From Cyanidioschyzon merolae (lineage: Eukaryota): a DNA stretch of 64,000 nt. Location: assembly GCA_000091205.1 (NCBI GenBank), contig AP006490.2. The stretch is one strand, 5' to 3'. Every line of letters begins with the position of its first letter. The stretch's first letter is position 1. The notes under the pieces are model-generated. The model saw only the letters and a list, made by a program, of their open reading frames with translations. It was not told where the DNA came from and searched no databases. A program made the translations under genes and the position numbers. Of the stretch, positions 30,435-54,077 are shown in pieces.

Positions 30435-32786
30435 TTGCGCACTGGCGATCGGTTTGTCAAGCCATCTGCGCTGCTACGTGTCCGTGTGGCAATCGCAGCA
30501 TGGCGCAATCGGCGCGTCGCATTGCGGGTCGTGTACCGAGCGTTGGGCGCGCGATGCAAGCCGCAGCGCTTGCGGTTCATCCATCGCTGCCTGGGGCGGG
30601 GCGAGTCTCGAGCGGAGACTAGTGCTCCGCGGAAGTGCGGGTTTTCTCAGGCGCTTTGTTCATGGGTACAAGGCGTGTTTCCATTGACTGGCACGTCACG
30701 CACTGAAGTCCACATGTCGTATGGAGGACACGAAAGCTCTCTGCAGAAGAGGGCGTGGTCTGCTAGAACGCGCTCGACGCCGACTGCAGACGGGGCGAGC
30801 ACCTCTGCCTCCGCTGGTGCGCGTCAGCGGAAGCCGCTGCTGGAGCTCCTAACCACCGATATTTTACGCACGTACCGACGAGTATCTTCCGTATTCGAGT
30901 ACGATCCGAAGCTGAATCCTCGAAGAACTTTGACGAGGCCAGACCAGCCGCGGTTTAACAACGGCTACGATAATGAGAATCACGACTTCATTCTCCGTGT
31001 GCATGATGCTATTCGCTCCCCGAACGGGGACGTTTACGAAGTGCTGGACCTGCTTGGTGTGGGCACTTTTGGACAGGTAGTGAAATGCTTAGAACTGGGC
31101 AGCAGCCGGACGGTGGCTCTCAAGGTGGTGAAAAACCAAGAGGCATACCTGCGACAGGCCCTCATGGAAGTCTACGTGTTGCAGATGCTCCATCGCACTT
31201 TTCCTGCGGAACGCGTCCGCCACGTGGTTAAGTTACTGCAGCACTTTCAGTTTCACCATCATCTATGCCTCGTCTTGGAGAAGCTGGGAATGTCCTTGTT
31301 TGATCTTTTGAAACAGAATCGATTTCGAGGCTTGGGCCTCCTCATTGTTCGTTCCGTGCTGCAGCAGTTGCTTCCGACGTTGGATCTGCTCGCGCAAGCG
31401 GGAATCATCCACTGCGATTTGAAGCCTGAGAACCTGCTCCTCTGCCGAAACGATGGTGTGGAGGTGAAACTCATCGACTTTGGCTCGGCGTGCCAGGAAA
31501 ATCACGTCATATATTCGTACGTCCAGTCGCGTTTCTATCGCTCACCCGAGGTGATCCTGGGACTGCCCTACGGAACGAAGATCGATATTTGGTCTCTGGG
31601 CTGTATCGTTGGGGAACTGTTTTTGGGTTTGCCACTGTTTCCGGGCCACGACGACGAAAACATGATTCAGCGAATGGTGGACATGCTTGGTATGCCGCCG
31701 GCGTGGATGATTCAAAGCGGCAAGCAGAGCCATCGCTTCTTTCACAACGGGCATCTTCGCGGTCTGACTTCGGACGCGCTGACAGGGCAGGGGCCTGTAC
31801 CCTGGAAACAGTACTTTAAGCACCGGAAACTGGAGGATATCATTGTGAAGAGCCCCATGAAACCAAACACGGATGAGCGCGAGGAACTGGCACAGCGGCG
31901 CGCACTGCTCAGCCTCTTGCGCGGAATGTTGGAGTGGGATCCTGGTCGGCGTTGGACGAGCACCGAATGCATGCTGCATCCGTTTCTGAGTGGACGCGGC
32001 ATGATGGACCAGGAGACATGGTTGCCTCCGCGCCTTCGATCGCCGAACATGGGCCTTCGTTTCCACACCCGCGATCTTGCAACCTATGGCGATGAGGCAG
32101 CGGAGGATGCACGGGCACTGGCTTCAGCATCATCAGCAGCACATGGTAGCTCGAAAGCGCAGCTACCTCCGGCGTACGTGCTGTCCACAAGCGCACCAGC
32201 ATTCGCTCTGCACGAGCGTGCCGGTGACGAGGCGGCTTCGCTGCCTGCTGCAGCCTCCGATGCCACCGCCAGGGAGCAGCGCACGCGCAGACTCGCACGA
32301 CCCCGCCAGGACAGCTCCATGATGCAATCGCTCAGTGCGACACTGGAGCAGGCGCTGCAAACCGTCCAAGATTGTCAGCGAATGGAGCGCACGCCCCAGC
32401 AGTCGAACGCTCAATGCTCCATCGCCTCCGGTGCGAGCCGCACATTCGTCGAGGGCAATCCAATGCTTGCCAGTTCGCCTGGTATGCTGGCAGACATTGC
32501 TGCATGCACATCGAGCGCGCTGTACGATGCCGCATGGAATCCATTCGCCATTGAGGAGGCGGTAGAGCCCACGAACGCCTACATGTTGGGTGACGCTTCA
32601 TCCAACATGCCGCACGATCCTGAGATTCCCGAAGACGATGCAGATATCGTGCCACCCGCTGTACCAAAGGCACCGACCACGGCTCTGGACTCAGGCGCTG
32701 TGGCTGCGGCGAGCGCACCAGAGCCGGGCGGTTTAGCGAGCAATGTCCGAATATGGCCGTTTGCGGGCCAAGGACGCGGCCACTAA
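30435..32786 (+). CDS. DYRK-family dual-specificity protein kinase. The start may be ATG 30714.
   Basis: LGVGTFGQVVKC...ALKVVKN...HCDLKPENLLL...DFGSAC...YVQSRFYRSPEVILGLPY...DIWSLGCIVGELFLGLPLFPG are DYRK/YAK hallmarks, including the activation-loop Y-x-Y and DYRK-specific motifs. Confidence 0.8.
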   Translation: MRTGDRFVKPSALLRVRVAIAAWRNRRVALRVVYRALGARCKPQRLRFIHRCLGRGESRAETSAPRKCGFSQALCSWVQGVFPLTGTSRTEVHMSYGGHESSLQKRAWSARTRSTPTADGASTSASAGARQRKPLLELLTTDILRTYRRVSSVFEYDPKLNPRRTLTRPDQPRFNNGYDNENHDFILRVHDAIRSPNGDVYEVLDLLGVGTFGQVVKCLELGSSRTVALKVVKNQEAYLRQALMEVYVLQMLHRTFPAERVRHVVKLLQHFQFHHHLCLVLEKLGMSLFDLLKQNRFRGLGLLIVRSVLQQLLPTLDLLAQAGIIHCDLKPENLLLCRNDGVEVKLIDFGSACQENHVIYSYVQSRFYRSPEVILGLPYGTKIDIWSLGCIVGELFLGLPLFPGHDDENMIQRMVDMLGMPPAWMIQSGKQSHRFFHNGHLRGLTSDALTGQGPVPWKQYFKHRKLEDIIVKSPMKPNTDEREELAQRRALLSLLRGMLEWDPGRRWTSTECMLHPFLSGRGMMDQETWLPPRLRSPNMGLRFHTRDLATYGDEAAEDARALASASSAAHGSSKAQLPPAYVLSTSAPAFALHERAGDEAASLPAAASDATAREQRTRRLARPRQDSSMMQSLSATLEQALQTVQDCQRMERTPQQSNAQCSIASGASRTFVEGNPMLASSPGMLADIAACTSSALYDAAWNPFAIEEAVEPTNAYMLGDASSNMPHDPEIPEDDADIVPPAVPKAPTTALDSGAVAAASAPEPGGLASNVRIWPFAGQGRGH

Positions 32787-34966
32787 TCGCAAACGCGTGC
32801 ACCGAAAGAAACTGGTGCCGGAAACTCGAACTCGCGACGCAGTTGATTCGCGGTGATGTATGCCATGCGCTGTGATCCGACAATGCGGTGCAACGCCAGG
32901 GCATCATCTGGCATGATGAACAGCGTGCATGCTTGTCGGAAACTCGACCCAGAGGCTTCTAAACTCGCAACGAGCTCGGTGTAGAACTGGGGGAATTGAG
33001 GAACTCCGTAGAAGAAGATGTACTGGGAGCCTCGAAGATGATAGCGGCGATAGAAATGGAAACGCTCGGTAACGAGGAGGAAGCGTACGCGCCCTTCGAA
33101 GAAAAGCAGGCGATAGCGACTGATATCCTGAGGTTTGCTGTACTCGGAGCAGGCTGCGAAACTGAGTTTCGAGGCCGGGTAGACCGCTTGCTCTGTCCAT
33201 TTGCGGAAGAGGTTGCGCACCCGCACAAAATCGAAATACGAGGGAATGTAGATTAGAATGTGCGTGTGCGTACTCTGGACAAGTTTCGGTAACCAGTCGT
33301 GGGAAAACGCAGCAAATCGCAGCTCTGCCGCCTCCACCGCCGAAAGTGTGTTCGTTGCAGCGCCTTCGCGTCCCGACCCGGTGCCGTGCGGTGTCGCGAG
33401 CCGGCGGAACACATGACGGACTCGTCTGGGTGCTGGAATATCCGCGATCACCCCAGCGTGCCGTGTTCGAAGTAGTTTTAGCACGCCACTTACATTACCT
33501 TGGTGATCTCTTCGCGCTAGACGGAACCATGCATGGCATTCGGGAAAATCAAATGCCGACAAGAGAATATCCTGGCGGTAGGCCGCAGCGTGGTCTTCAA
33601 GAAAGCGCTGCTCCACTCGTGAAAAGTCTGTCTTTTGCGGCACCTGAGCCGGCATTCTGTTCACGGCCTCTCGCACAACGCGCAGCAAATGGTCCCAGTT
33701 CTGCATGAGCATCATATGCGACCGTAAAATCACCGCGATTTCAATACTGGAAAGTGGATCTGCTGCACCGCCTCGCATGCCGCCCTTGTCGGGATCGTCG
33801 AGCACACGCTGGAGGCCCAGCGGGGACACAACCACAAAGTCAGAGTCCGCGAAATCCGCGAAAAAGTGGAGGGATCGGCGCTCAACGCGAACCCCCAGAC
33901 GAAAGTCATCATCGATATTGCCTTTGAATGCGGCTCGGTGGTCGCGAGGTTTTGCACGCCAATGTCGAGCGCGGCTGGTATCTGCACCTGGATCAGGCAC
34001 CGGTTCCGTAGGCGGCACCAGTAAAGTGTTCGGCTCTTCGGAGACAGTCCCATCGTCTGCGTCGGGTCCGAATGCTCCCTCAAAGCGCTGCGCGTGCCCG
34101 ATCTGCCGTGGGTTCAGGTATCTGAGCACCGCAGACAGGAACGCATACGCTACCTGCCGGGTTGGCGCAAAGACAAGCACTCGAGCGCGACTGAGGCCCC
34201 GGTCACGGTACTGATCCCAGTCGTCGTCGACGACAGACGCACCCGGCCGCTGTGCCAGCTGCACATTGTGCTGCTCCTGTCGCGCCTGTGCCTGCAGAAT
34301 GTGCGCACAAGTGTAGGCCGCAACGATCTCCAGGTGAAGCTGCTCCTCGTCAACGGAATCGATACAAGCAAGCAGAACATCGGCCTTGGTAACGAGAGCT
34401 CGAGCGAAGCACAGACCGCGCTGCAGGAGCAGGTCGCGCTCTCCGTAACGAAAAGGCGCCGAGGCGGCAACGTCCCCGGCACTAGGATCCACCAGTGCCG
34501 CGAGGCGCCGCTGGAGCATGGGCGTAGCCGCCACCAGGTCTGGTATGGAGCATAGTCGACGCTGCGCCTCTTCATAACGTTTTCTGGTGACGTGTCCTTT
34601 CACAGCGGACGCAAAAATGTCCGGTGCATCCCAGGAACGGGCGTGCGCTCCAGTGACTGGCTCCGTGTCCATGCAGTTCGCCTCGCAGCGTTGCCACGTA
34701 AGGGCATCTTCCGTGGCGTCCGCCGCCGTGGGGCTCAAGCTCAGGTGCTCGCGTAGCATCTGGACGCTCAGGTGCTCAGAGGCGCTCTCCGGTGCAGGTC
34801 GCTGGCAAGTCTGGCGATCGGAAACAGACGAGCCTACGGTGTTCGCCTTTGAGGTAACACCACCAGCTTTCGTTGCTGTTTCGAAGGTCAGGGAGTCAGC
34901 TTCGTCGGCGCCGCGCTGATCGCCTACCACGACAGACGCCCGACGCTTCCCCGCTTCGGCGCGCAT
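32783..34966 (-). CDS. Utp25 / digestive-organ expansion factor (DEF) homolog, nucleolar SSU processome protein
   Basis: 727-aa ORF whose C-terminal half matches Utp25/DUF1253 (FLLVTERFHFYRRYHLRGSQYIFFYGVPQFPQFYTELV, RMAYITANQLRR). Its stop overlaps the kinase stop by 4 nt (convergent). Confidence 0.7.
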   Translation of the reverse strand: MRAEAGKRRASVVVGDQRGADEADSLTFETATKAGGVTSKANTVGSSVSDRQTCQRPAPESASEHLSVQMLREHLSLSPTAADATEDALTWQRCEANCMDTEPVTGAHARSWDAPDIFASAVKGHVTRKRYEEAQRRLCSIPDLVAATPMLQRRLAALVDPSAGDVAASAPFRYGERDLLLQRGLCFARALVTKADVLLACIDSVDEEQLHLEIVAAYTCAHILQAQARQEQHNVQLAQRPGASVVDDDWDQYRDRGLSRARVLVFAPTRQVAYAFLSAVLRYLNPRQIGHAQRFEGAFGPDADDGTVSEEPNTLLVPPTEPVPDPGADTSRARHWRAKPRDHRAAFKGNIDDDFRLGVRVERRSLHFFADFADSDFVVVSPLGLQRVLDDPDKGGMRGGAADPLSSIEIAVILRSHMMLMQNWDHLLRVVREAVNRMPAQVPQKTDFSRVEQRFLEDHAAAYRQDILLSAFDFPECHAWFRLARRDHQGNVSGVLKLLRTRHAGVIADIPAPRRVRHVFRRLATPHGTGSGREGAATNTLSAVEAAELRFAAFSHDWLPKLVQSTHTHILIYIPSYFDFVRVRNLFRKWTEQAVYPASKLSFAACSEYSKPQDISRYRLLFFEGRVRFLLVTERFHFYRRYHLRGSQYIFFYGVPQFPQFYTELVASLEASGSSFRQACTLFIMPDDALALHRIVGSQRMAYITANQLRREFEFPAPVSFGARVCD

Positions 34967-35108
34967 GGCAGCAAGCGCCCAAAACTAGGCCCTCCTGATA
35001 CCAGGCGCCGCTCACTGGTCCGCAGCACTCCACGAGCAAGAGCTCTGAACGTCGTCTGTGAAACCGCTGCGGTACCAGAAACAACAGCTTCGTAAAATAC
35101 TGCTATTG

Positions 35109-35149
<41 letters not shown>

Positions 35150-35842
35150 GCCATCGATCCTGCGTTCGCGAATCGCCACCGAGACGCCGCTGCGGTGACG
35201 TCGGCGGAAGCGCGCTGTCGGCTGGGAGCGTCCACAGGGACACGCACCCGTATCGCCTGGATCGCTATTGGGGAGTGTGGGTCATGGAACTTGGAGATAG
35301 AATGTGGAACGATAGCTGCTTTACCAGTTTCTAATACCAAACGCGCCATCGGAAATCCCCTGGTCTACTTAAACGCTCTTTCTACAATGGAGCGGTGCAC
35401 AAGCATCGCCTGGATCTTTTGGAGCGGCGATTCACTCGCTGGAGACCGCCACCGCCGTCGCGCGCCGGCAGCGCAGGCGTCCCGCGACTCCCGAAACTGC
35501 CTCGTGCGCTACATATTCTTTTGACCAAACGCGGCACTGAACGTCGTTCGAAAGAGGCGTCCTGTTTGACCGCGAACGTCGGGTTCTTGCCAGAACTTTC
35601 TCCCACGCTTAGTAGAACCGCAAAACGCTGTATGAACGCGTTGGTTGCGGTGTGCAGCGAACGCAGCGAGCGAAACTGGCGAACGCTTCGTACGAACATA
35701 GCGCTGGAGCGGGGAGTGCGGGTCTCGAAACTGCCGCGTTACCGGTGGCGATGCGCATGGACTTGCACGTGAACTGCCTGCTTGGAGAATAGACTATCAA
35801 CTACGGCTCTGATAAGAGAGAATCCGTTTCGAGTTTCACGTC
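34967..35842. promoter_or_regulatory. Putative bidirectional promoter between divergent Utp25 and eIF5, containing a (GCT)n microsatellite
   Basis: Inferred only from the divergent gene arrangement. (GCT)13 at about 35110-35148. Confidence 0.3.
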
Positions 35843-37717
35843 ATGGAGCTGGGAGGATCTTCCGGACTCGTCAATATCGGAGGCGGTAGTGAAGATGCGC
35901 ACTACCGCTACAAGATGCCTCGCATCATGGGCAAGATTGAGGGCAGGGGGAACGGCATCAAAACAAGAATCGTGAACTGCTCCCAAATTGCCAAGGCGCT
36001 GCACCGGCCGCCGGGGTATATCTGCAAGTTCTTCGGCTGTGAGCTCGGAGCGCAGACCAAGATCAGCGATGATGAAGATGTATACATCGTGAACGGCGCG
36101 CATGATCAGAAACTGTTAGCCGACACGCTTGACAAATTCGTGCGGATGTTTGTTTTGTGTCCAAGCTGCAATATGCCGGAGACGGACCTCGTCATCGATA
36201 AGCGCGGCAACATATACCACGTCTGTAACGCGTGCGGTGCGCAACATCTCGTTGACATGAGCCACCGCGTGACCACCTACATGTTGAACAACCCCCCTGA
36301 TGGCGCTAGATCGAAGAAATCTGGCAAGTCGAAAAAGGAGCGGAAGGAGTCGAAGAAAAAGAAAGGGCACGAAAAAGGCTCAAATGTACACGAGGAGGCA
36401 CCGGATGCGGACGACGCACCTGATTCCGGAACGGACGGCAAAACGAAAAAGAAAAAATCGAGCAAGCGGCGAGATGGGGAAACAGAAGAGGCGTACCGCG
36501 AGCGCCGAGCGGCAGAGAAGGCGGCGCGTCGTCAGGAACGTGCTGCGCAAAAGGCTGGTGCGTCTGCTCCCTGGCACGCAAATGGAACCGAAGCGCTCGT
36601 TGCACCCACGGATTTGGACGCGTTGGCTCAAGAAGCGGAGGCCATGAACGCTGCACTGAATCAGAGACGTCGCCAGACAAATGCTACCGGCCAGGAGGAC
36701 TCTGAGCTGGACGAATCCGGTAGCGGCGATACCAGCCCGAGCTCACCAGCCGCTGCGCAGCCGCATGGATTCCCGTCTGATGCGGCTCAGCGGCACGCTG
36801 GCGATCGCGGCATGCGCACGGCATCCCACAAGTCCGGTGGGCATCTCGAGAGCGATCGCAATGCGTTGCGTCCAAATGGTGACCACCACTACAACGACGA
36901 TGACGACCATGAAGATGATGATGACGACGATGACGACGACGGCGAAGACCCGCAAGCAGACGGCGACTGGACTGCACACGACGATCAGACGACGTCCCAA
37001 ATGAAACTGGCGGCTGCGAGAGCAGCGGCGCTCCTGACCAATGCCGGAGTGAATGGCAACGGGGAATCGCCTCAGCGTGCCGTGAGCAAGACAACGTCGA
37101 AACTGGACGAACTGCACCTCGTCAGTAGCAAAGGAACAGTGCAACGCGCTACCACAGATGTGTCCGTGGACGACGAGAAGCTGGATCGTTTTGAAGCGTG
37201 GCTTCGCCAAGGTCACCATTCTCCCGCGTCCATTGCCAGCGAAGCGCGCAAATATTTCCCGAACGATAGCGCCAGTGCTGCGCAAGCGATCTTTTGTGCT
37301 GTTGTTGCGCACGCCGCGCATCCGGAATGCAGACCCGGAGAATCCCCCGCGCGGCACGCAGTGCACGCAGTCGATGCGCTGCGTGCGCTTTCGCTCAATC
37401 ACGCAGCACAGGCGCGCCTGTTGGATGCGTTCGAGGCATTGGCGGGGGTCGGATCGGACGAGGCGCGCAACCTAGCGCCCTCGGATGTGCAGCGTGGAGC
37501 CAAGCTTAGTCTCCAGAGTCGTCTGAATTCGATACCCCACATCCTGAAACTGTTTTATGATGAGGATATTCTGGATGAACAGGTGATTATCGATTGGTTT
37601 ACTCGGAGATCGCCAGGTTCATCGACCGCGGCGGGCGAGCGGGCACGGGATGCGGCCAAGCCGCTCGTTGAATGGCTGCAGCAACCCAGCGAGGCAGAGG
37701 ACAGTACTGAGGAATAG
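35843..37717 (+). CDS. Translation initiation factor eIF5 (eIF2beta/eIF5 N-domain plus acidic linker plus W2 domain)
   Basis: YRYKMPRIMGKIEGRGNGIKTRIVNCSQIAKALHRPPGYICKFFGCELGAQT...VLCPSCNMPETDL closely matches the eIF5 N-terminus. C-terminal W2-like region with an acidic tail. Confidence 0.9.
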   Translation: MELGGSSGLVNIGGGSEDAHYRYKMPRIMGKIEGRGNGIKTRIVNCSQIAKALHRPPGYICKFFGCELGAQTKISDDEDVYIVNGAHDQKLLADTLDKFVRMFVLCPSCNMPETDLVIDKRGNIYHVCNACGAQHLVDMSHRVTTYMLNNPPDGARSKKSGKSKKERKESKKKKGHEKGSNVHEEAPDADDAPDSGTDGKTKKKKSSKRRDGETEEAYRERRAAEKAARRQERAAQKAGASAPWHANGTEALVAPTDLDALAQEAEAMNAALNQRRRQTNATGQEDSELDESGSGDTSPSSPAAAQPHGFPSDAAQRHAGDRGMRTASHKSGGHLESDRNALRPNGDHHYNDDDDHEDDDDDDDDDGEDPQADGDWTAHDDQTTSQMKLAAARAAALLTNAGVNGNGESPQRAVSKTTSKLDELHLVSSKGTVQRATTDVSVDDEKLDRFEAWLRQGHHSPASIASEARKYFPNDSASAAQAIFCAVVAHAAHPECRPGESPARHAVHAVDALRALSLNHAAQARLLDAFEALAGVGSDEARNLAPSDVQRGAKLSLQSRLNSIPHILKLFYDEDILDEQVIIDWFTRRSPGSSTAAGERARDAAKPLVEWLQQPSEAEDSTEE

Positions 37718-37999
37718 AGGAAAGCATGACTCCACCGAAAGTGAATGCGAAAAACGGATCTGCAAGGAGCGTAAAACGATTGTCGACGGCTTGATTGCGG
37801 GTCGCGTGTCGCTGGCGCGCATTCCATATCCCGATATCCGTTCCGAGTCCGTGCAAAGCGCTGCGTTTGAGCATGTCATGGAGCGGAAGCGAGACACTTT
37901 TCATTTTGAGGCCGCTTATTCTCGATTCCCTACATAGACGAAGAGCGGTGATTCACGGTCTGTTTAGGTGATCGCGGTCCACGGATCGTCCCGGTCGCG

Positions 38000-40264
38000 C
38001 TAGTGACTGCGTTCGACACCGGCGAGGCGCTCAGCGAGACTGAGCGGACGCGGCGGCAGTACCGGCATCGTGTCGGGCGCCTGCGAGAGACGGGCGTATT
38101 GCTCGCTGTCCAGGCGTTGTTGTTGTTGTTGTTTCTCTTGGGCTTTGCGTTGTTCGCTCTCGCGCTGCTGTCGTGCTTGTTCTTTCTGCGCGAACGCAGC
38201 GGCGGTGGCGGCGAGGCGATCCCTTTGGATGCGACGGTACAAGCTGACTTGTTCACCAAGTCTCGGGATATTGCGTAGGAAATAGTCCTCTGGACGTTTG
38301 CCCGTGCGCGTTTCAAACACATCGACCATGCCGACGTCGTCGATAACGAATTCGGTGTCGTTCGTACCGATATATTCGCTGTCCATCGCAGTGCCAAGCG
38401 CGGGTGATCCGGAAGCAGAGGCGGTTGCGGCGCGATGCCTGAGCAGCGCCCGGTACTTGAGACAGAAAAGCGCAGCGAGCACTTGTTCGGTGCTGTGGTC
38501 CGCAGACCCGCCCAAACCTAGGTATTGTGAGAGCTTCTGTACGTCTATGGTGCGATAGATGCGTAGATAGGAGCTCAGCTGCGCAGGCAGACCTGATTCG
38601 CTCTGTGCAACTTGCTGCAGAAACACCTCACGACAGGTGTTCGCAACGCTCGGTTGCAGAAACTTGGGACACGCATGATTATAAAGTTCTTCGAAAGCAC
38701 TCAGATCGCCCTGTCGTATGCGCGTGGTGCGATCGCCGAGTTTTTCTCTCAGCCAACTGTTCATGGAATCGTCGAGACGGTTCCGCCCTAGGCACTGAGC
38801 TAACGAGAGGAGCGCAAGCATCTGATCAATCCGCTTGTTCACCTGTTCATATTGGAAGGATCGGACGTGGATATGTTTGGTGCGCGTGATGTGCACGATG
38901 GTCGGCTGCAACGCTCTAATCGCCTCCTCGTAGCGTCGAAGCATCAGCGCGCTGAATCCTATGTAGTAGTACACGGCTACATGGCAGGCGGTAACGTGGG
39001 TATGCAGCCGCAAACGGAGGTCTGTTGATTGCATGAGGCTGCCTTCGGTTCCCGCAGGCTCTGCGTTAGCGGCACTGGGGATAGGTTTTTCTCGCGAAGC
39101 CCTGGCAACTGCGGAAATGGTTACAGAGCGAATCCACTCGGTTTCAAATAGTGATGGAGGATCTAAAACTGAAAGCGCCGCGAAGAAATCTCCCGTGGCA
39201 CAGTGCAAGCGTAATAAACCGACCATCGCAAAATAACCGAGGTAGCGATACAGCAGCGAGTCGGCAGCCAGACAGCGTTCAGGGGCGAGTGTACCTAGAT
39301 CCTCATCCGCATCCGTTAGGCTCTGGTCTTCAGAATCGTTGGCCATGTCTTCTTCATCTTCTTCTGCAGCTCCAGGTGCACCGCGAAAGTCTTCAGCATC
39401 ATCCTCGTGGACGCCGATATTGTCAGGGCTCGCCTCCCCAGCTCCGCCCCCGGTATCTTTGGCAGTTTCCTCGGCAGAGTCGCCTCTTGCAGCCGGCGCG
39501 ATGGAGCCCGTAGCGGCTGTCGCTGCGCGTGCGCCCTCTGCTGTTGCTGTTGCTGCTGCTGCGTTATTCACCGATGCAAATGGGTAGTTGTCATCGGGTT
39601 TGGGAGCACCGACCGCTTCTCGCAGCCAGCCGACGATGCCACTCTTCTCTACTAGTGTACTCAGTATCTCTAGAGTTGTTCGGACATTCCACATCGAATT
39701 CATGTTCTCCGTTTCGAGCTCTTCAAGCGTGTGCCCATCTTGGCTTCGGGCGCGATACTGATGGTAGTCCTCAAACTGGTAGAGAAACTCGTCGATCAGA
39801 TCCCAGAGCCAGGAGGCTGGCAGCGCACACTCCTGCAGGTGCCCCTGGGCAAAATGCGCAAACAGAGCAAGATAGTTTGACCACGACTGGGACCTCTGTT
39901 TCAGGGTCGGGTGCAGCCTCATGTGCATATGTCTATATCCCAGTTCTTGGTAAAGCAGCATGAATAGCTCGATGTAACTAGGGGCATGCCCAGCAGCAGC
40001 GTTCGCCGATTCGTCGTCGTCGTCAGCTTCGGTACCGCGCTGCACCTTGGCCTCCAAATCTCGCAGTAGCTCACGCACAACAGATGATTGCGGCAGCAGG
40101 CAACTTTTGTAGAAGCGCTCAGCGATACGCGTGAAGCCACTCTCGTAGAGGCCGTGTACTGCCACGCTGTCACCGTCCACGAACTTGTTATAAAAGTTTA
40201 CCAAGTACTGCGATACCTCTTCGGGGAGCGTTGATTTCCGCGGATCAACGATTGTTTCAACCAT
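38000..40264 (-). CDS. Translation initiation factor eIF3 subunit L
   Basis: YIELFMLLYQELGYRHMHMRL, LPASWLWDLIDEFLYQFEDYHQYRA, YFAMVGLLRLH, YYYIGFSALMLRRYEEAIRAL and LREKLGDRTTRIRQGD align along the length of eIF3l. A lineage-specific acidic/low-complexity insert is present. Confidence 0.85.
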   Translation of the reverse strand: MVETIVDPRKSTLPEEVSQYLVNFYNKFVDGDSVAVHGLYESGFTRIAERFYKSCLLPQSSVVRELLRDLEAKVQRGTEADDDDESANAAAGHAPSYIELFMLLYQELGYRHMHMRLHPTLKQRSQSWSNYLALFAHFAQGHLQECALPASWLWDLIDEFLYQFEDYHQYRARSQDGHTLEELETENMNSMWNVRTTLEILSTLVEKSGIVGWLREAVGAPKPDDNYPFASVNNAAAATATAEGARAATAATGSIAPAARGDSAEETAKDTGGGAGEASPDNIGVHEDDAEDFRGAPGAAEEDEEDMANDSEDQSLTDADEDLGTLAPERCLAADSLLYRYLGYFAMVGLLRLHCATGDFFAALSVLDPPSLFETEWIRSVTISAVARASREKPIPSAANAEPAGTEGSLMQSTDLRLRLHTHVTACHVAVYYYIGFSALMLRRYEEAIRALQPTIVHITRTKHIHVRSFQYEQVNKRIDQMLALLSLAQCLGRNRLDDSMNSWLREKLGDRTTRIRQGDLSAFEELYNHACPKFLQPSVANTCREVFLQQVAQSESGLPAQLSSYLRIYRTIDVQKLSQYLGLGGSADHSTEQVLAALFCLKYRALLRHRAATASASGSPALGTAMDSEYIGTNDTEFVIDDVGMVDVFETRTGKRPEDYFLRNIPRLGEQVSLYRRIQRDRLAATAAAFAQKEQARQQRESEQRKAQEKQQQQQRLDSEQYARLSQAPDTMPVLPPRPLSLAERLAGVERSH

Positions 40265-40809
40265 ATTTCCGATTCCTGACTACGATCCGGCAACGGGTGG
40301 CGTGCGAAGAAACCGAGTCGTTATGCTAGGAGCAAACTGATGGAAGCAGAGTTGCCCCAGTGCGTCGAAGTGCGCACAGTCAGGCAACCGAAAAGAACGC
40401 TCTCCAAGGAAACGCGTCTGTAACAGTCTCCGTCTACCCTAGCAACCGACAAACGTTCGCCAGGAACAAGTGCTTGTGAGCGGTATATCGCGAAACTCAG
40501 CGATGAGGCGAAGAGCGCAACGTCGACGTTGACTCCGAAGCATGCATCTCGCAACACGCAGCTCTCCCTGCGGCACATCGCGGCGCGCTACGATCATCCA
40601 AGTGGCAATGCAAGCGGGATCGCGCGGCGCGCGGCATGCCATCGCAGCGTCACGTGACACCTGAGGAAGGAAACGACGGCGCCTGACTCGGAGACGCTGC
40701 TGCATGCGTGCTGCGGCGTTGCTGTCCAAGCACGTGCGTGCAACGCAGTTTGTAGACACGAGGCAAGGCTCCCATAGTCTACCACTGCGGCAACGTTTTC
40801 ACTATCTTC
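40265..40809. promoter_or_regulatory. Putative shared promoter between divergent eIF3l and eIF3a
   Basis: Inferred from the head-to-head arrangement only. Confidence 0.3.
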
Positions 40810-43800
40810 ATGAGTGGTGCTTACCCAGGGCGTTACGGTAGTATGAGCCGCGGTGGTGGTACTGGTGGTGGTGGTGGTGGTGGTGGTGGCTACGGTGGTC
40901 ACCGCGGCCGTAACCAACGGTTCGGTTCGCGTTACGGCAGGCCGATCCTCAAGCCCGAGAACGCCCTGAACCGGGCAGAGCAGCTTCTGGCAGTGGGTCA
41001 AAAGTCTGCAGCTCACGAAGCGTTGTACACGTTGATAACTGAGCATACACCGATAAACGTCGGCGGCCGCGAAGCCCAAGCACTCGTCGCCCAGGCGCAA
41101 GCGCAAGCGCAGGCTGCTGCACAGGTGGCTGCGAACGCGGCTGCCGTCGCTCAGGAGCAGGATGAAGGCGGTGCTCGCAGCACAGCTGCTGCAGCTGCAG
41201 CTGCGGCCGCGGCCGCTGCCGCAGCTGCAAGCGCGATCCAGTCGTCAACCTCAGGCTGGAGCAAAGTCCACGAGGGTATCATGATGCGGCTGGTTGAGCT
41301 CAGCGTTGAGCTTCGCCGGCCACTGGCACTCAAGGAATCGCTACACCGTTACCGTGCGCTCTGCGGAGTCGCGAACACTGCTTCCCTTGAAGCCGTTGTG
41401 CTCCATGCAGTGGAGTGCTCTGAGGCGGCGGTGGACGCGGCAAGGACGCTGGCTATGGAGAGTTTCCACGCGAGCGCCGCTGCTCAGAGCCCAATTACGG
41501 AGGACGCTGGAGATGCGGAAGGCGACGGGAATGAACTGATATCCGAGGGCACGGACGACATCGTTGCCGATGAGGTTGCTGACAGCGACGACCGCGGCAA
41601 CGCCACCGACGACGATGCCCAGCCCGCATGGGGCGTTGAGGTGCCCCAAACGCTGCTGCTTGAGGCCAATGGTATGCTTGCGTCTCGCACACGAATAGAG
41701 AGACAGCTGCTCGCACCAACCCTTATGTTCGCATGGGAAGTTTTCCGCATGTGCCTGGATATTCTCAAAAATAATATTCGTGTAGAGAAAGCGTATAATG
41801 AAGTAGCAGAGCGAGCGCTGCTTTTCACGGCAAAGTTCAATCGGGCAACGGAGTTCCGCCGATTATGCGACATTCTTCGGCAGCACATGGCAGGTTTGGT
41901 GCGTACCATTGTGCGCTCGCCGCAGAGCGAGATCGACCAGGTTCATTGGCCGACCGTCCAGCGTATGATTCGGATCCGCTTTCAGCAGGCAGATCAAGCG
42001 ATGGCCAGTGGACACTGGCAGGAGGCCTATCGTACCATGGACGACCTGCATGAACTTTTGCGGATATGTACGCGAGGTCGCAGCCCTGAAATTTTGGCTG
42101 GTTACTTTGAGCGACTCGCAACTATCTTCGAAACGACTGACAATCTACTTCTGCATGCACTTGCGCTTTACAAGTTGTATCTGGTCCGGCAGGCTGCCGC
42201 AGAGGCTCTCCAGAACCAGGATCCGAACCAGGATGCGGACGGGCAGGTTCCAGGACCCTCGTCGGAGACGCCACGAGACACAGCAGTTCGACTTTTGGTG
42301 GCGACGCTTTCCATCCCCGTCAAGGAGCTCTCTGCTCACAGTAAGGTCATGGAAGTCTTCGCCGATGCAGCGACGCTAACGAGCTTTGAGCAGGCGCGTC
42401 AGGCCAAAATGCTAGACCTGTTGCAGTGGCCAAGCGCGGCCTCTGCGGGCTCGAACGAGGCATGGGATCGCTTGATTTCAAATCCAACAAAATCGTGGCT
42501 GATCGGAGAAGTTATATCCAATGGTATTGAGGAGGCGTGCCCTGAAGCGCTTCGCGAATTGTTGTACGAATTCATCGATCCGGGACTGCTCCGCTGGAAG
42601 CAAGCGGGCAAAGCTCGACTTGGAACGCCACAGTCGCTGGCTGCTAAGGCACAGCGCTGGTTCACCAGTATGCATCTTGACGTCGGTTCCGAGGTCGCCG
42701 GAGTTACTGGCTCAGGCGGTGTCGATGGCACCGGTGGCGACTGTACCGGGGCGGGCGCACCCAGCAGCAAACCTGGCCAGAGCGCACGTGCCTCCATGAT
42801 GCCGCTGAGTCGTGCCATCATTGCTGAGCTTTTGTTACGAATCGCTCAGTACTACGACAGTTTCTTGCTGTGGGAGCTTCGCTCTATGGTGAATTTCCTT
42901 CCGTTTGTGCAGGTGCATGCCATCGTGCTCGAATTTCTTCGAGCGGAGCTGGTCCCATTTCGCCTGGATTTCCGAAAGGGTGTCCTCTATCGCTTCTGCA
43001 GAACCATAGAACAGGAGGAGCTGGGCGATGCTCTTTGTCGCATTGCCACGCGCCTGCAAGCAGCGGCTAGCACCATCACACAGCGAGCATCCACAGCGGA
43101 CGAGCATGAGATCCGTATTCTGAACGCCAAAGAGGCAGCATTTCCGTTGGAGCGCTTGGAGAGAGAGCAGCAGCGGCGCGTGACGCAGTTGGAAGTGCTG
43201 CAGTCATTCCTGAAGCAACTGGATGAGGTTGCACAACGCATGGAACGCGAGGAGCAACGCCAAGCGCAGCTTGAGGCCGCAAGACACGCCGAGGAAGAAA
43301 AGCGGCGCCTCGCAGAAGAGGCGCGTCGTCGCGAGCTCGAAGCGATCCGGCGCGAAATGGAAGAGAAAGAGCAGGCTGAATTGCGGCGTCTGAAAGCTGA
43401 AATGGATGCACGCCGAAGAGTCGGCCTCTCAGCGAGTGGTGCAGCGGCTGGGCTTGCGCTGCCCTCAAGTGTTGCTGGGATAGAATCCACCGCCGCCGGA
43501 GCGTCCCTAGGAACCGTTGGTATCGGAGTGGATAGCGTGGGCGGGGCTGGCGGGCCAGCGCGAAGCGTCTGGAGTCGCAGCGGATCCGGGACAGCGGCCG
43601 TGCTTTCCGGTGCTCGTGCAACAAGCGCGCTGCCTGGTGTTGCCGTCGACTCTGTGCCGGGCATCGGTGCCGGTGCAGCAGATGGCTTCACGGCGGTTGG
43701 CGCCGATGCACTGGATCATGACGGTGATCGCCTCAGTCGACAGGAGCTTTTGCAACAGCAGCAGCAGGAGCGTCTCCAGCAACGCAAGATGCTCGAACAA

Positions 43801-44775
43801 AAGATATTCCAGCTGTCTCGTCGAATGGACTATTTGGATCGTGCGCTCCACGAAAAGCAGGCGACGCATCTGGATCAGGTTCACAAGGAAATGGTACGCG
43901 AATTGATTGCACGTCGGCAGTCGGCAGCAACCTGCCGTCTGCGTCAGCTGCAGGAGCAGTTTGAGAGCGATCTTGCACGCCGTGCGCGGCTGGAGAGCAT
44001 TTTTAGGGATCCGCTTTACCAGAAGGCTGTCGATCACATCAAAGAGGAGGCTCGGGCACGTGCACTGCGTGAGTGGAAGCCGCGTCAAGGCAACGGTTCT
44101 CCGAATCAACAGACGCCTATAGGCAATGTATCCGCAGAAGAAACCCCTGCAGAGCAGACACCTGGTCGCACAGCAGCAGCAGCAGCAGCAGCAGAACAAC
44201 AACGACAACAACAACAACCACGGAGCGACACTGGGTCCAATGGAGTGCCTGCTTCTGCGTACGAGGCAGCGGCGGAACATTCGCCGACAGCGACTGTCCC
44301 GTATCCCAAACAGGTGCCTCTGGCGGGTACACCCACTGGCAATACCGTGAGCGCGACTCGCTCGAGCGGCGATAACCACTCGGGGCCTGAGCGGCCGGTG
44401 CCACCCGCTGGAGAAACAGTCTCCGAACGTGAACAACAAGCGCGGCACGCACCTGCACCTGCACTTGCACCTGTAGCGCCCCGTTCTGGCATTGTGACGA
44501 TCGTTCACGCTGCGGACAAGGGTCTCCTCGGTGATCAGCCGTTTGTCACGCCATCCACGGCGACGTCAGCTGGAATCCCGGCCCCGAAAGCGACAGGAAA
44601 TGAAGAGTCGAGCCAAAGGCGTGGCTACGTACCGCCACACTTACGCCGTCAGCAACAGGCACCACAGCGTCTAGCTGCAAACCAAGAACCAGAGCAACGA
44701 GCAGGGCTAGGTGCCAGGGCCGGGCCACGGCGCGGTTTTGGCTTCACGGACTCGAATCCACGCCCGTCTTCATAG
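40810..44775 (+). CDS. Translation initiation factor eIF3 subunit A (PCI domain plus long charged coiled-coil tail), with a Gly-rich N-terminal extension
   Basis: RPILKPENALNRAEQLLAVGQKSAAHEALYTLI matches the eIF3a N-terminus (RPENALKRANE...). PCI region, then an E/R/Q-rich coiled coil (EEARRRELEAIRREMEEKEQAELRRLKAEMDARRR). Confidence 0.8.
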   Translation: MSGAYPGRYGSMSRGGGTGGGGGGGGGYGGHRGRNQRFGSRYGRPILKPENALNRAEQLLAVGQKSAAHEALYTLITEHTPINVGGREAQALVAQAQAQAQAAAQVAANAAAVAQEQDEGGARSTAAAAAAAAAAAAAAASAIQSSTSGWSKVHEGIMMRLVELSVELRRPLALKESLHRYRALCGVANTASLEAVVLHAVECSEAAVDAARTLAMESFHASAAAQSPITEDAGDAEGDGNELISEGTDDIVADEVADSDDRGNATDDDAQPAWGVEVPQTLLLEANGMLASRTRIERQLLAPTLMFAWEVFRMCLDILKNNIRVEKAYNEVAERALLFTAKFNRATEFRRLCDILRQHMAGLVRTIVRSPQSEIDQVHWPTVQRMIRIRFQQADQAMASGHWQEAYRTMDDLHELLRICTRGRSPEILAGYFERLATIFETTDNLLLHALALYKLYLVRQAAAEALQNQDPNQDADGQVPGPSSETPRDTAVRLLVATLSIPVKELSAHSKVMEVFADAATLTSFEQARQAKMLDLLQWPSAASAGSNEAWDRLISNPTKSWLIGEVISNGIEEACPEALRELLYEFIDPGLLRWKQAGKARLGTPQSLAAKAQRWFTSMHLDVGSEVAGVTGSGGVDGTGGDCTGAGAPSSKPGQSARASMMPLSRAIIAELLLRIAQYYDSFLLWELRSMVNFLPFVQVHAIVLEFLRAELVPFRLDFRKGVLYRFCRTIEQEELGDALCRIATRLQAAASTITQRASTADEHEIRILNAKEAAFPLERLEREQQRRVTQLEVLQSFLKQLDEVAQRMEREEQRQAQLEAARHAEEEKRRLAEEARRRELEAIRREMEEKEQAELRRLKAEMDARRRVGLSASGAAAGLALPSSVAGIESTAAGASLGTVGIGVDSVGGAGGPARSVWSRSGSGTAAVLSGARATSALPGVAVDSVPGIGAGAADGFTAVGADALDHDGDRLSRQELLQQQQQERLQQRKMLEQKIFQLSRRMDYLDRALHEKQATHLDQVHKEMVRELIARRQSAATCRLRQLQEQFESDLARRARLESIFRDPLYQKAVDHIKEEARARALREWKPRQGNGSPNQQTPIGNVSAEETPAEQTPGRTAAAAAAAEQQRQQQQPRSDTGSNGVPASAYEAAAEHSPTATVPYPKQVPLAGTPTGNTVSATRSSGDNHSGPERPVPPAGETVSEREQQARHAPAPALAPVAPRSGIVTIVHAADKGLLGDQPFVTPSTATSAGIPAPKATGNEESSQRRGYVPPHLRRQQQAPQRLAANQEPEQRAGLGARAGPRRGFGFTDSNPRPSS

Positions 44776-44828
44776 TCGTCGTCGTCGTCGTAGAAAGTGC
44801 TTCTCTTGGGCGCTTTCCCTCGTTACGA

Positions 44829-45713
44829 CTAGGCGGCGTCACGTCGAAGCGATCTTCGCTCGGTCTGTGCCATGAATCCCTGTCGAATCGGAGCCACCGA
44901 CCGAGAGGAGCCGCAGTTTTCGCACTTCATAAAGTAGAGCCGCGTATGGGCATCGCGCATGAGCACGGTCTCGGGGCTCTTGCAACTCGCACACATGACG
45001 TATTCGCGGATGTAACGCCGCAGCACACCCTCGAAACCAGCGGGCTGGAATCGCCCTTTGAGAACCAGACGGGCACTCTCCTGCAGATTCCCGGTGGTGC
45101 CGAGCTCAGCGGCCATGTAGGCTGCCAAGTGCTCCGGTTGTCGACGCAGTGACTGGCATATATCCCCAAAATTAAGGAAAACGGTACGCTTGGAGCCTTC
45201 TCGTGCAATCTGCGGAGGTCGTAGCGATAAGCGGCGACGACCGTCCGGGTTCCCGCCCAGACCCGGGTGCCGTCCGTGGAGCATGTCGAAGATGCGGCGA
45301 AGGAGCTCGTCGTAGGTGTAGTCACGATCCGTACCTTGCCACGGCTCCGCTGCCTCCATATTGTTTTCATGGCTAACGCTGCTGCTGGACGTCGTGATGG
45401 TGCCTGCGTTCACCGCTGTCCCGCTGTCGACAGGCGACGCCGCTCGATCGCCGTCGGATTCGACCTGGAAGTGCACGTGCCGTTCTGTCGGAGCCTGTTC
45501 CGAGTCAAGCGCAGTTGTCGTATCCCCGGCATTCGTTCCTTGTTCTACAGGTTTCTTCTTCTTCTTTTTCTTCATCGATGGGTCGAACAGCAGCGGCTCC
45601 GCTGTGTTCAAAGCAGCAGCGGTGTCCGCAGTTGCGCCGGCGCCAGTCGACGCGGACACCTCGGCAAGGTTCCCGCTCGACTCCTGGAAGGCACCATTTT
45701 CATTCGGGGGCAT
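44829..45713 (-). CDS. Translation initiation factor eIF2 beta subunit. The ORF extends to 45824, but the likely start is MPPNENG at 45713.
   Basis: Poly-Lys K-box (KKKKKKKP). LRRIFDMLHGRHP...GSKRTVFLNFGDICQSLRRQPEHLAAYMAAELGTTGNL...VMCASCKSPETVLMRDAHTRLYFMKCENCGSSRSV contains the C4 zinc finger of eIF2beta. Confidence 0.85.
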   Translation of the reverse strand: MPPNENGAFQESSGNLAEVSASTGAGATADTAAALNTAEPLLFDPSMKKKKKKKPVEQGTNAGDTTTALDSEQAPTERHVHFQVESDGDRAASPVDSGTAVNAGTITTSSSSVSHENNMEAAEPWQGTDRDYTYDELLRRIFDMLHGRHPGLGGNPDGRRRLSLRPPQIAREGSKRTVFLNFGDICQSLRRQPEHLAAYMAAELGTTGNLQESARLVLKGRFQPAGFEGVLRRYIREYVMCASCKSPETVLMRDAHTRLYFMKCENCGSSRSVAPIRQGFMAQTERRSLRRDAA

Positions 45714-45881
45714 GTTAGACGTCCAGGTGCACGTTTGGAAAACTGCTATCGAGACTTGCGGAAACGCCTGCACCGCAGTAAGCAGCTCTGTTTTTCCTCG
45801 CAGAACGCGTAGCGTACAGCGCAAAGCGTCAGCGCGGCGGTGGATGCGGCGGTGGCGGTGGCGGTGGCGGGCGCCCCGCCA

Positions 45882-45901
45882 GTGTGTGTGTGTGTGTTTG
45901 T
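45882..45901. repeat. (GT)n microsatellite, preceded by a (GCGGTG)n hexamer repeat at 45838-45870
   Basis: Direct read. Confidence 0.85.
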
Positions 45902-46900
45902 GGGTGCTACCTGGGAGCCGAGTCCTAGTGTTGACTCCCGGGCATCGCTGTGACGATGTTTACCATGAAGGTTGTGATTCCTGGAATATCTATAACAGGG
46001 CTGGTGCTTGCCTCCGATAGTTTTTTCTCGATGGTATGCCCTCAAAGGAGCATATCGTGTAGACTGGGGTACCGCCATGGGGAAGCTGGATGCTAGAGCT
46101 GCTCTCTAGAATAAACCGAACTATTTTTTGATTTTTGTTGTGCATACGCGAGAAGCGTGCATTTGGGCACCTGTTCATGGAGTTGGAAAAGGAAACGACA
46201 GATACGTTGCGTCGCTTGGTGGTAGCGTATGGCGCTGGATTGCTAACGATCGGGAACAATTGCAGCACACCTGCACCGTTGACGTGCGTGTCCAATGCGT
46301 GCAAGCATCGATGCTGCACGATTCCCATCGATGTGTTCAGAATGCTATACAAGTATCACAAGCAACATTGCACGCTGAAACAGGTGGACCATACCTGCGT
46401 GAAACAGAGCTGGATGCACGGAATGGAGTGCGGCAAGCGGAGCGAACGTCAGACGGCGAGGCAGTGGAAGGTGACCGGCATTCTACGCTGCGATTCTCTG
46501 ACACCTAGTGCATGGTATCACTGTCTGCTCCGAAACTTGACCCTATAAGATCAACGTCCGGTAATATCTTGTGTTTTCAGAGCGTCCAGCGGCTTTACGT
46601 CGAGCGCGCTTACCAGGGAATATGGGAGTACTCAGTATAGGCAGTGGTGTGAAGCGCGGAAGACTTGTGACTAAAAAATCAATGTGCTGGAGAAAGTGAT
46701 TGGAAACTCGTCTAGTGCGAGACACTGGTATCAGGTGGTTCAACAATCAAGCCCGAAAAACTGAAGCGCCGTCGATGCATACTCGGAACCATTTTCCTGC
46801 GCAACTGGTGTACCACACCATCGTGATCCATCATGATTCGATAGATACCAGGGAAAAGGCCTTGTGTACGTTGGGCACGTTCGCGTTTTGCTGCTGAACC

Positions 46901-47629
46901 GTGTGTGGGGCTCGTTGGTCTCGTAGGGAACCGGAGGATGGACGCGGGGAGCAGGTCGGTTTCCAAGAGATGGACCTAGAGAGTGAGTGGCGAGAAAATC
47001 CACACGAAACTGCGCGGTTCGAAGTGCTGCTCGAGCGCGTACTCGGCAACGGCACTGACTCGGACACTGTGACGACTCCTGAACCGTCGTTGAAGGTACC
47101 AGCTTCCTCGTTGCGGTTGCAGCTGGCTCCACAAGCTGGCGAAAGACTTGACTGGGAATCAGAGGCGGACGCTGCACACCACAGAGGAAACGAGGCGTTT
47201 CGCGCGCGTTTCCTGTACTACGCGTGGCTCGAGTACACCCGTGCGTTGCTCTCTAAACCAACGAACGCAGCTGTGTATGCGAATCGAGCGCAGGTAGATT
47301 TGCTGCTGGCACAATCCGTTCCCGAACATTCGCTATCAACTGCTGTTGACTGGTACCAGCAAGCGCGGCGAGACGCACGACACGCGTGGGGTTGCCTCGG
47401 CGGGAGCGTTACCGCTGAAGGCAACCCTGACTGGGACGAGCGCTCTGCCACCGCGTCTATCCCTGAACCCAAACTAGCCCGTTTGCGATGGAAGGTGTGT
47501 TTACGGTACGCAGCAGCGGCTCGCGGACTAGGTTTGGTGGCTGAGGCAGACGCCGCAGCTGCGAGCGCCCAGCGCCTGAAACTTGCTGCGCGAGCGTCTC
47601 AGCAACGACAGCGAAACGCAAGCTTCTAG
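46901..47629 (+). CDS. Hypothetical protein with a TPR-like repeat
   Basis: HHRGNEAFRARFLYYAWLEYTRALLSKPTNAAVYANRAQ resembles a TPR unit. Otherwise unassigned. Confidence 0.3.
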   Translation: MCGARWSRREPEDGRGEQVGFQEMDLESEWRENPHETARFEVLLERVLGNGTDSDTVTTPEPSLKVPASSLRLQLAPQAGERLDWESEADAAHHRGNEAFRARFLYYAWLEYTRALLSKPTNAAVYANRAQVDLLLAQSVPEHSLSTAVDWYQQARRDARHAWGCLGGSVTAEGNPDWDERSATASIPEPKLARLRWKVCLRYAAAARGLGLVAEADAAAASAQRLKLAARASQQRQRNASF

Positions 47630-53654: not shown

Positions 53655-54077
53655 CTACGACGCAGAAGTCTTTGTTTCAGATCGGAGTCGTCCCAGTTCA
53701 TGTTTGATGAGCTGGCTGCGTCGCTTCCTTGCAACCATCACGCGAAACCGATCAAAGTCGGTTAACCGGGCACGCACTCGTTGCTTTTCAACCTTTTGAC
53801 CCCATGCAGTTTCCCGGAAACGCTGCACAGCCTGCTGCGCCTCAAGAGCTTTCCGTACGACGCTCGTTTTGCAAGCACGAGGCAACTTAACGACCACGTC
53901 CGTCAACTTCAAGCGCTTCACGTTGATGACCGTACGAGGGACTCCGGAGTCGGCCGTGGCATCAATCACAACATGACCCTGATCCTGGATATCCACGATA
54001 ACACAGATCTTGTCAGCATGCTCACCGTAGCTGATAATACACAGTCGGCCAACTTCCACAAACCTTTTGAAAGCCAT
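53655..54077 (-). CDS. RPL14: 60S ribosomal protein L14e
   Basis: MAFKRFVEVGRLCIISYGEHADKICVIVDIQDQGHVVIDA shows the KOW-like N-terminus of eL14. Basic C-terminal tail. Convergent with the DEP gene, 17 bp apart. Confidence 0.8.
   Translation of the reverse strand: MAFKRFVEVGRLCIISYGEHADKICVIVDIQDQGHVVIDATADSGVPRTVINVKRLKLTDVVVKLPRACKTSVVRKALEAQQAVQRFRETAWGQKVEKQRVRARLTDFDRFRVMVARKRRSQLIKHELGRLRSETKTSAS

Follow-up and report, generated by a model that had tools for sequence, protein, structure and literature searches.

The 64,000-nucleotide stretch of DNA analysed here (the window) is carried by chromosome 8 (739,753 bp) of the red alga Cyanidioschyzon merolae 10D and contains five consecutive genes, CMH057C to CMH061C (locus tags from the table in PMC6606799), which encode Utp25, eIF5, eIF3l, eIF3a and eIF2beta (Table 1). 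Four of these neighbours are eukaryotic initiation factor (eIF) genes, forming a run that is unlikely under random gene order, that is conserved in three genera of Cyanidiales along with its unrelated flanks, and that showed no coordinated expression in the diel series that we analysed. All five genes are intronless, single uninterrupted open reading frames (ORFs), coding sequence makes up 86% of the 12.9-kb block, and the gap between eIF3a and eIF2beta is so small that the 3′ untranslated regions (UTRs) of both must be very short or overlap. The strands alternate strictly over the five genes (- + - + -), which is not the co-directional layout of an operon or polycistronic unit. No snoRNA or tRNA gene was found hidden in the spacers, as there is no Rfam or tRNA match anywhere in the window.

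A preliminary description of the window, made from the sequence alone, had presented the block as a tight cluster of five translation-initiation genes. Its gene identities, order, orientations and spacers were all correct. Indeed, Pfam matches above the curated cut-offs were obtained for all five proteins and PDB matches for eIF3l and eIF2beta, no orthologue proved to be misidentified, and four of the five proteins are exactly identical to C. merolae 10D entries (BAM79753, BAM79754, BAM79755 and BAM79757). Two details had to be amended. Utp25 is a small-subunit processome factor, and because it serves ribosome biogenesis the initiation run comprises four genes rather than five. The end given for eIF2beta, 45824, is only an upstream TTG of a mechanically called ORF, the annotated start being the ATG at 45713.

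Utp25 carries the domains UTP25_NTPase-like (PF22916, E = 1e-58) and Utp25_C (PF06862, E = 3e-46); its UniRef name is U3 snoRNA-associated protein 25 and its published annotation 'hypothetical protein, conserved'. The CMH058C protein is composed of an N-terminal GAP/zinc-ribbon domain (PF01873, 5e-34, residues 17-134), a long acidic linker and a C-terminal W2 (HEAT) domain (PF02020, 2e-15, residues 524-621), and its YRYKMPR motif and Cys4 positions are invariant in an alignment of five orthologues. The presence of both the GAP and the W2 domain identifies it as eIF5 itself and sets it apart from eIF5-mimic proteins. CMH059C, published as 'eIF3 subunit E interacting protein', matches Paf67 (PF10255, E = 4e-91) and the human/mammalian eIF3l chains in the PDB (4e-68), while eIF3a matches the PCI/TPR-like domain (PF22591, E = 5e-70) and aligns by tblastn from residue 1 with its orthologue at locus L002. 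Finally, eIF2beta matches PF01873 (2e-36) and human eIF2 subunit 2 in the PDB (2e-54); it has a C-terminal zinc-ribbon domain and a single N-terminal lysine run, KKKKKKK (K7), as compared with the three K-boxes, binding sites for eIF5 and eIF2B-epsilon, that the yeast and human proteins have (three according to PMC12439599). Two of the proteins are also long for their families: eIF5 has ~590-624 aa and eIF3l ~720-755 aa in Cyanidioschyzon and Cyanidiococcus, versus ~410-480 and 530-565 aa elsewhere, and the extra 150-200 residues are acidic low-complexity insertions, such as an extended Asp tract in the linker of eIF5.

Table 1. Features of the C. merolae window and of comparison loci; positions refer to the window unless a locus (L) is named
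Feature	Locus tag	Position	Strand	Length	Remarks
KN/TALE-class homeobox gene	CMH049C	6820-7806	-		annotated 'unknown homeobox protein'
TCACGTGA copy		11357-11364			unrelated intergenic site
TCACGTGA copy		18139-18146			unrelated intergenic site
YAK1-type kinase	CMH056C	30714-32786	+		convergent to Utp25
YAK1/Utp25 overlap		32783-32786		4 bp	tail to tail
Utp25	CMH057C	32783-34966	-	727 aa	Pfam; exact match BAM79753.1
Utp25/eIF5 spacer		34967-35842		876 bp	divergent
eIF5 5′ leader		35615-35842		~230 nt
Upstream ORF 1 (uORF1)		35632-35772	+	46 codons	context cgctgtATGa, pyrimidine at -3
Upstream ORF 2 (uORF2)		35757-35792	+	11 codons	conserved cgcATGg at -86; overlaps uORF1 end
eIF5	CMH058C	35843-37717	+	624 aa	Pfam PF01873 and PF02020; exact match BAM79754.1
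eIF5/eIF3l spacer		37718-37999		282 bp	convergent, between 3′ ends
eIF3l	CMH059C	38000-40264	-	754 aa	Pfam Paf67; PDB match; exact match BAM79755.1
eIF3l/eIF3a spacer		40265-40809		545 bp	divergent
Palindrome GTCACGTGAC		40649-40658			G-box/E-box-like; 152-161 bp upstream of eIF3a ATG
eIF3a	CMH060C	40810-44775	+	1321-aa ORF	Pfam eIF3a_PCI_TPR-like; orthologues; published annotation
eIF3a/eIF2beta spacer		44776-44828		53 bp	convergent, between stop codons
eIF2beta	CMH061C	44829-45713	-	294 aa	Pfam PF01873; PDB match; exact match BAM79757.1
Small TPR protein	CMH062C	46970-47629	+	219 aa	boundary of cluster; divergent partner of eIF2beta
SURF1	CMH063C				from published microarray table
RPL14e	CMH065C	53655-54077	-		annotated RPL14
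Organellar S15	CMH066C	54345-55022	+		annotated mitochondrial S15
GTPBP1	CMH069C	61147-63003	+		annotated conserved GTP-binding protein; E = 2e-155 to human GTPBP1
YAK1/Utp25 overlap, Cyanidiococcus yangmingshanensis (L001)		18667-18670
YAK1/Utp25 overlap, Cyanidiococcus-like lineage (L002)		17881-17884
YAK1/Utp25 overlap, Cyanidium caldarium (L008)		2492-2505		14 bp
YAK1/Utp25 overlap, related ENA contig (L010)		2730-2743
Ribosomal-protein genes near eIF5, Galdieria partita (L011)		11554-12124; 6704-7054
Ribosomal-protein gene beside eIF5, Porphyridium purpureum (L012)		11826-12263

To judge the run against chance we took N = 4803 genes (PMC9812998) and K = 30-40 eIF genes, the latter assumed from the canonical factor list. 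At K = 35, random order would be expected to bring four eIF genes together in a row 1.1e-5 times per genome (6e-6 to 2e-5 over the range of K), so that four consecutive genes of one pathway lie together well beyond chance and the improbability of the adjacency, already sensed in the preliminary description, is borne out. The figure depends on what is counted: pooling all translation-related genes (K ~200) gives an expectation of 1.4e-2 per genome, and raising the eIF-specific value to allow for some 300 other functional classes of comparable size gives ~3e-3. The four-gene run is statistically unusual, by a margin that shrinks if many compact genomes are screened. It is not part of a wider enrichment of translation genes on the chromosome. 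We considered and rejected this idea, since the two extra genes on chromosome 8, eIF3c (CMH126C) and eIF3g (CMH159C), are about what the chromosome's share of the genome predicts.

The suggestion that the arrangement be sought in related genomes was followed up with success, as the same five genes occur in identical order and orientation in Cyanidiococcus yangmingshanensis, in Cyanidium caldarium and in a related ENA contig, and likewise in a second Cyanidiococcus-like lineage recovered from hot-spring metagenomes (L002-L004). Protein identities between the genera fall to 40-60%, in places down to about 40-45%, and the convergent spacers measure 176-212 bp (eIF5/eIF3l) in the relatives versus 282 bp in C. 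merolae and 25-42 bp (eIF3a/eIF2beta) in three relatives versus 53 bp. However, the unrelated flanks are equally conserved. Genes for a 2196-aa C2-domain protein, YAK1, the small TPR protein, SURF1 and a DEP/DUF547 protein are collinear too, giving a block of ~30 kb from which Cyanidium deviates by one ABC-transporter gene only, inserted outside the cluster. In fact, Cho et al. found 86% collinear genes among three Cyanidiales genera and no strong conservation of gene order between Cyanidiales and Galdieriales (PMC9812998). Because the flanks are kept as well and 86% collinearity is the default, conservation within the Cyanidiales is nearly uninformative about selection.

Beyond the Cyanidiales the cluster disappears, which for Galdieria coincides with a general loss of synteny with the Cyanidiales. 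Around the Galdieria partita eIF3a gene the cluster is absent and the neighbours are NDUFS4, CKS, COX16 and ubiquitin genes; it is similarly absent around Galdieria eIF5, whose neighbours include an S19-family ribosomal protein gene, and around Porphyridium eIF5, which is flanked by RPL23a and ProRS. In a survey of metagenomic eIF3l loci (80 listed, 50 of them at least 10 kb long), none of the 77 loci from other eukaryotes carried eIF5, eIF3a, eIF2beta or Utp25 in its flanks. The presence of the arrangement in both Cyanidium and Cyanidioschyzon implies that it existed in their common ancestor; it may also be older, with a loss in Galdieria.

In the multifactor complex the W2 domain of eIF5 contacts the K-boxes of eIF2beta, and eIF3a belongs to the same assembly. 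Even so, the explanation that we favour, with confidence somewhat better than even, is that the adjacency is real and lineage-specific and at the same time a passive historical accident, kept by stable gene order and made up of individually regulated genes. The block would then consist of five independent single-gene transcription units, four of them encoding 43S/multifactor initiation partners. Their adjacency would have originated a single time, when genes were rearranged or lost as the genome of this lineage shrank, perhaps helped by weak selection in favour of keeping essential, constitutive genes side by side. Since then, the near-constancy of gene order in these genomes would have preserved the cluster passively. 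Each gene would have its own promoter and expression level, with no behaviour as a co-regulated unit, and eIF5 may have an additional translational control of its own in the form of a conserved leader with two predicted uORFs. Several points weigh against this explanation. With an expectation of ~1e-5, pure accident is hard to accept unless one allows for a large look-elsewhere effect, the expression test described below is weak (a single replicate with seven points and amplitudes under 2.1-fold), and the products of the cluster physically touch in the multifactor complex, as stated in PMC13055193 and PMC12439599. The low chance probability together with the physical interaction of the products therefore keeps two explanations by selection alive, neither with positive evidence in its favour.

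According to the first of these, the genes were brought and are kept together as a co-expression neighbourhood, in which a shared chromatin domain and two bidirectional promoters would give coordinated, stoichiometric expression of the multifactor complex. The low chance probability of the run and its very short spacers within densely coding DNA are in keeping with this idea, as is the tighter co-regulation known for adjacent ribosome-related genes in other eukaryotes (PMC3500266), and the preliminary description had likewise pointed to co-regulation, possibly through shared bidirectional promoters. We nevertheless consider it unlikely. Expression values came from the Agilent microarray series of Miyagishima et al. 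2019 (PMC6606799, Data Set S1), sampled under 12 h light / 12 h dark, and Pearson r was computed on log2 signals over hours 0-24 (seven time points, replicate 1, one condition). Mean pairwise r among the four eIF genes was 0.05, compared to a background of 0.04 over 62 neighbouring chromosome-8 genes, and 39% of random four-gene sets and 47% of consecutive ones (mean 0.07) reached this value. Unlinked eIF genes gave a mean r of 0.23 among themselves, above that of the four clustered genes; linkage thus goes with no tighter co-expression within this pathway.

Pairwise comparisons within the block point in the same direction. The divergent partners Utp25 and eIF5 were anticorrelated (r = -0.76) and their mean signals, 396 and 33378, differ ~84-fold, whereas the divergent pair eIF3l and eIF3a gave r = 0.25 and the convergent pair eIF5 and eIF3l r = 0.00. 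Two observations do fit a co-expression neighbourhood, namely the r of 0.72 between eIF3a and eIF2beta and the similar mean signals of eIF3l, eIF3a and eIF2beta (2331, 2306 and 1849). However, eIF3a correlated just as well with the unlinked genes for eIF3c (r = 0.70) and eIF5B (0.78), and similar levels need no linkage, because the signals of the unlinked eIF3k, eIF3g and eIF3b lie in the same range of 2000-4000. Co-regulation of the four eIF genes is therefore unsupported rather than excluded by this one diel series.

The spacers were also inspected for signs of shared control. Head-to-head geometry below 1 kb is present in both divergent pairs, and the coordination in expression that shared promoters would predict was not seen in the diel series. 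Moreover, only the eIF3l/eIF3a spacer joins two eIF genes, as eIF5 faces Utp25 and eIF2beta faces CMH062C. Mining of the promoters, another check that had been proposed, revealed no motif common to all three that exceeded chance: k-mers were counted across five lineages in the three spacers on the promoter side, and nothing stood clearly above expectation. As candidates for a common motif, CGACGGCG (7 matches vs 5.2 expected) and GGACACGCA (3 matches vs 0.8 expected) were both discarded as post hoc picks among many k-mers. Phylogenetic footprinting between Cyanidioschyzon and Cyanidiococcus detected two conserved elements only, the eIF5 leader and one palindrome; nothing in the spacers could be aligned to Cyanidium in this way, and no conserved sequence was found in the convergent eIF5/eIF3l spacer. 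The palindrome, GTCACGTGAC, lies in the eIF3l/eIF3a spacer. Its conservation in two loci of the Cyanidiococcus type, where it stands at -120 and -122, fits a co-expression neighbourhood, but it is absent in Cyanidium. In addition, the perfect palindrome TCACGTGA (G-box/E-box core) occurs in three copies in the window, all outside long ORFs; it is not cluster-specific, because two of these copies lie at unrelated intergenic sites, and could be a promoter element of general use in these algae. Counts of CACGTG and CACGTGA in the window equal expectation. The last ~230 nt before the eIF5 ATG form a conserved putative leader, so that part of the supposed shared promoter between Utp25 and eIF5 would be 5′ UTR. 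A co-expression neighbourhood is further disfavoured by the fact that the cluster is no better conserved than its flanks.

A broader version of selection, to which we give a similarly low probability, places the event in the stem lineage of the Cyanidiales, where selection during extreme genome reduction would have assembled a dedicated neighbourhood for directly interacting partners of the multifactor complex (eIF5, eIF3a and eIF2beta, with eIF3l in addition), the benefit being either dosage balance or linkage of co-adapted interfaces. In the dosage-balance variant, a shared chromatin state might become visible only under growth-rate or stress transitions. If true, the locus would be one of the few non-metabolic clusters in eukaryotes in which non-paralogous genes for a single protein assembly lie together. 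The second of the two explanations by selection invokes recombination instead of expression: by holding eIF5, eIF3a and eIF2beta within 10 kb, linkage would keep co-adapted partners from meeting mismatched alleles. This idea needs no co-expression, so the microarray result does not count against it, and it can draw on the direct interaction of the products, on the rapid evolution of these proteins (40-60% identity between genera, with lineage-specific expansions of the eIF5 linker and of eIF3l) and on the sexual cycle reported for Cyanidiophyceae in PMC13353863. It is nonetheless entirely inferential and we hold it to be quite improbable, given that eIF3l has no known contact with eIF5 or eIF2beta and that the genes for other strongly interacting partners map to different places, that of eIF3c to CMH126C and that of eIF3b to chromosome K. 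Lastly, the mirror-symmetric layout [eIF5 > < eIF3l] [eIF3a > < eIF2beta], with a PF01873 gene and a PCI-type gene appearing twice and the eIF5 N-terminal domain homologous to eIF2beta (26% identity, E = 6e-13), might recall an ancient inverted duplication, of which there is next to no chance: the two-gene unit was rejected because eIF3a and eIF3l lack pairwise similarity (E = 4.5) and eIF5 and eIF2beta share an ancient domain only, both paralogue splits are older than the last eukaryotic common ancestor, and the layout is absent in Galdieria, Porphyridium and the 77 other eukaryotic loci.

To our knowledge, eukaryotic clusters of unrelated genes that serve one machine are rare outside metabolic and paralogous clusters, and the four-gene initiation-factor run is a clean, statistically striking example of such one-machine clustering. 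The genes and their annotations were already public; the clustering itself is apparently unreported and may be new, as our literature search found no paper mentioning it and a ribosome-profiling paper (PMC11808204) makes no mention of eIFs. As C. merolae genes can be moved by homologous recombination, the effect of adjacency is directly testable in this organism. If splitting the cluster has no effect, the locus would become a cautionary case of an improbable functional adjacency that is a frozen accident.

Of the phenomena described so far, the closest is the pairing of ribosome-related genes as neighbours in diverse eukaryotes, for which Arnone, McAlear and colleagues showed that genes of the ribosome-biogenesis and ribosomal-protein regulons are paired as neighbours with tighter co-regulation (PMC3500266). 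As in that work, translation or ribosome genes are immediate neighbours beyond chance in C. merolae, a non-duplication origin is common to both, the divergent and convergent orientations seen here figure there together with tandem ones, and Utp25/eIF5 sets a biogenesis gene beside a translation gene. On the other hand, adjacent pairing mostly concerns pairs rather than a run of four or five, initiation factors were outside the gene class studied, and the phenomenon is defined by co-regulation, whereas none of the tighter kind was seen in the one C. merolae series. The locus can also be compared to the bidirectional-promoter pairs of compact eukaryotic genomes. It has two head-to-head pairs with 876 and 545 bp between start codons and one candidate shared element, GTCACGTGAC, between eIF3l and eIF3a; it differs in the poor correlation of the divergent partners in the diel series, in the 84-fold disparity within one pair and in the ~230 nt of the Utp25/eIF5 spacer that are probably eIF5 leader.

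Clusters of essential or housekeeping genes in eukaryotic chromosomes were reportedly described by Pal and Hurst in 2003 and by Lercher, Urrutia and Hurst in 2002. The present block resembles these in bringing together five constitutive core-machinery genes in an unusually gene-dense stretch of C. merolae DNA. Unlike the four neighbours of one assembly found here, housekeeping clusters emerge as statistical trends across tens of genes, which have no molecular function in common.

The most conserved noncoding sequence of the block is the eIF5 leader, with 79% column identity between Cyanidioschyzon and Cyanidiococcus versus no alignment for the other spacers; by blastn to Cyanidiococcus, the Utp25/eIF5 spacer aligns at 35615-35643 and 35740-35774 only. 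Two uORFs, both with a pyrimidine at -3, precede eIF5 in all five Cyanidiales loci. In these loci the start of uORF1 lies at -211 to -242 in the context cgctgYATG, and its reading frame spans 45-46 codons; the shorter uORF2 (9-20 codons) begins at -86 or -88, with cacATGg or cgcATGg around its ATG. C. merolae alone has an extra in-frame uORF2 ATG, at 35751. Between Cyanidioschyzon and Cyanidiococcus, conservation extends to the stop codon of uORF1 and to its peptide, and the conserved peptide gives a hint that part of the control may depend on it. It has been reported that eIF5 autoregulates its translation through poor-context uORFs (Loughran et al., PMC3326321), and by analogy the leader is probably a red-algal version of this control. 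The two are alike in that weak-context upstream AUGs are conserved in the Cyanidiales eIF5 leader, and unlike in that for red algae such autoregulation is a prediction, and in that uORF1 is long (46 codons in C. merolae). If the prediction is right, the two-uORF leader extends the feedback loop on eIF5 start-codon stringency to an early-branching red alga.

It is worth noting that eIF5 has translation-related neighbours outside the Cyanidiales as well. The gene immediately adjoins a cytosolic ribosomal protein gene both in Galdieria partita (S19 family) and in Porphyridium purpureum (RPL23a), and in Galdieria partita a P1/P2 gene is also located three genes away. These differing ribosomal neighbours may be a coincidence, or may reflect a general tendency of translation genes to adjoin.

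The two genes bounding the cluster were examined too. On one side, the YAK1-type kinase gene (+) runs tail to tail into the Utp25 gene (-) in every lineage, the two coding regions sharing 4 bp in C. merolae and 14 bp in Cyanidium. The mean microarray signals of the kinase and Utp25 genes were 432 and 396 and their r was 0.98, much tighter than for any pair inside the eIF run, which could be due to overlapping transcripts or to a probe artefact. On the other side, orthologues of CMH062C stand at the same position, divergent to eIF2beta, in all Cyanidiales loci. The C. merolae protein, whose published annotation is 'hypothetical protein', gave no Pfam match, and its profile matches TPR domains of the clamp type found in Hsp70/Hsp90 co-chaperones (Sti1, SGT, RPAP3, SPAG1). 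An identity as eIF3k or another initiation factor, which would have extended the cluster, was rejected because the profile matches are to Sti1/SGT-type TPR domains only. With the kinase gene and CMH062C included, strict strand alternation (+ - + - + - +) extends across seven consecutive genes, 30714-47629; non-random gene orientation in C. merolae was noted earlier by Davila Lopez et al. (PMC2871058).

Further along the window, RPL14e, organellar S15 and GTPBP1 lie downstream of the cluster where the preliminary description had put them. The genes for cytosolic RPL14e (-) and the mitochondrial S15 precursor (+) are head-to-head and 267 bp apart, so that a single spacer separates genes whose products serve different compartments. 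Upstream of the cluster, the KN/TALE-class homeobox gene CMH049C is essentially silent in vegetative cells (microarray signal 5-14), a silence that could be of interest given the sexual cycle of Cyanidiophyceae recently described in PMC13353863.

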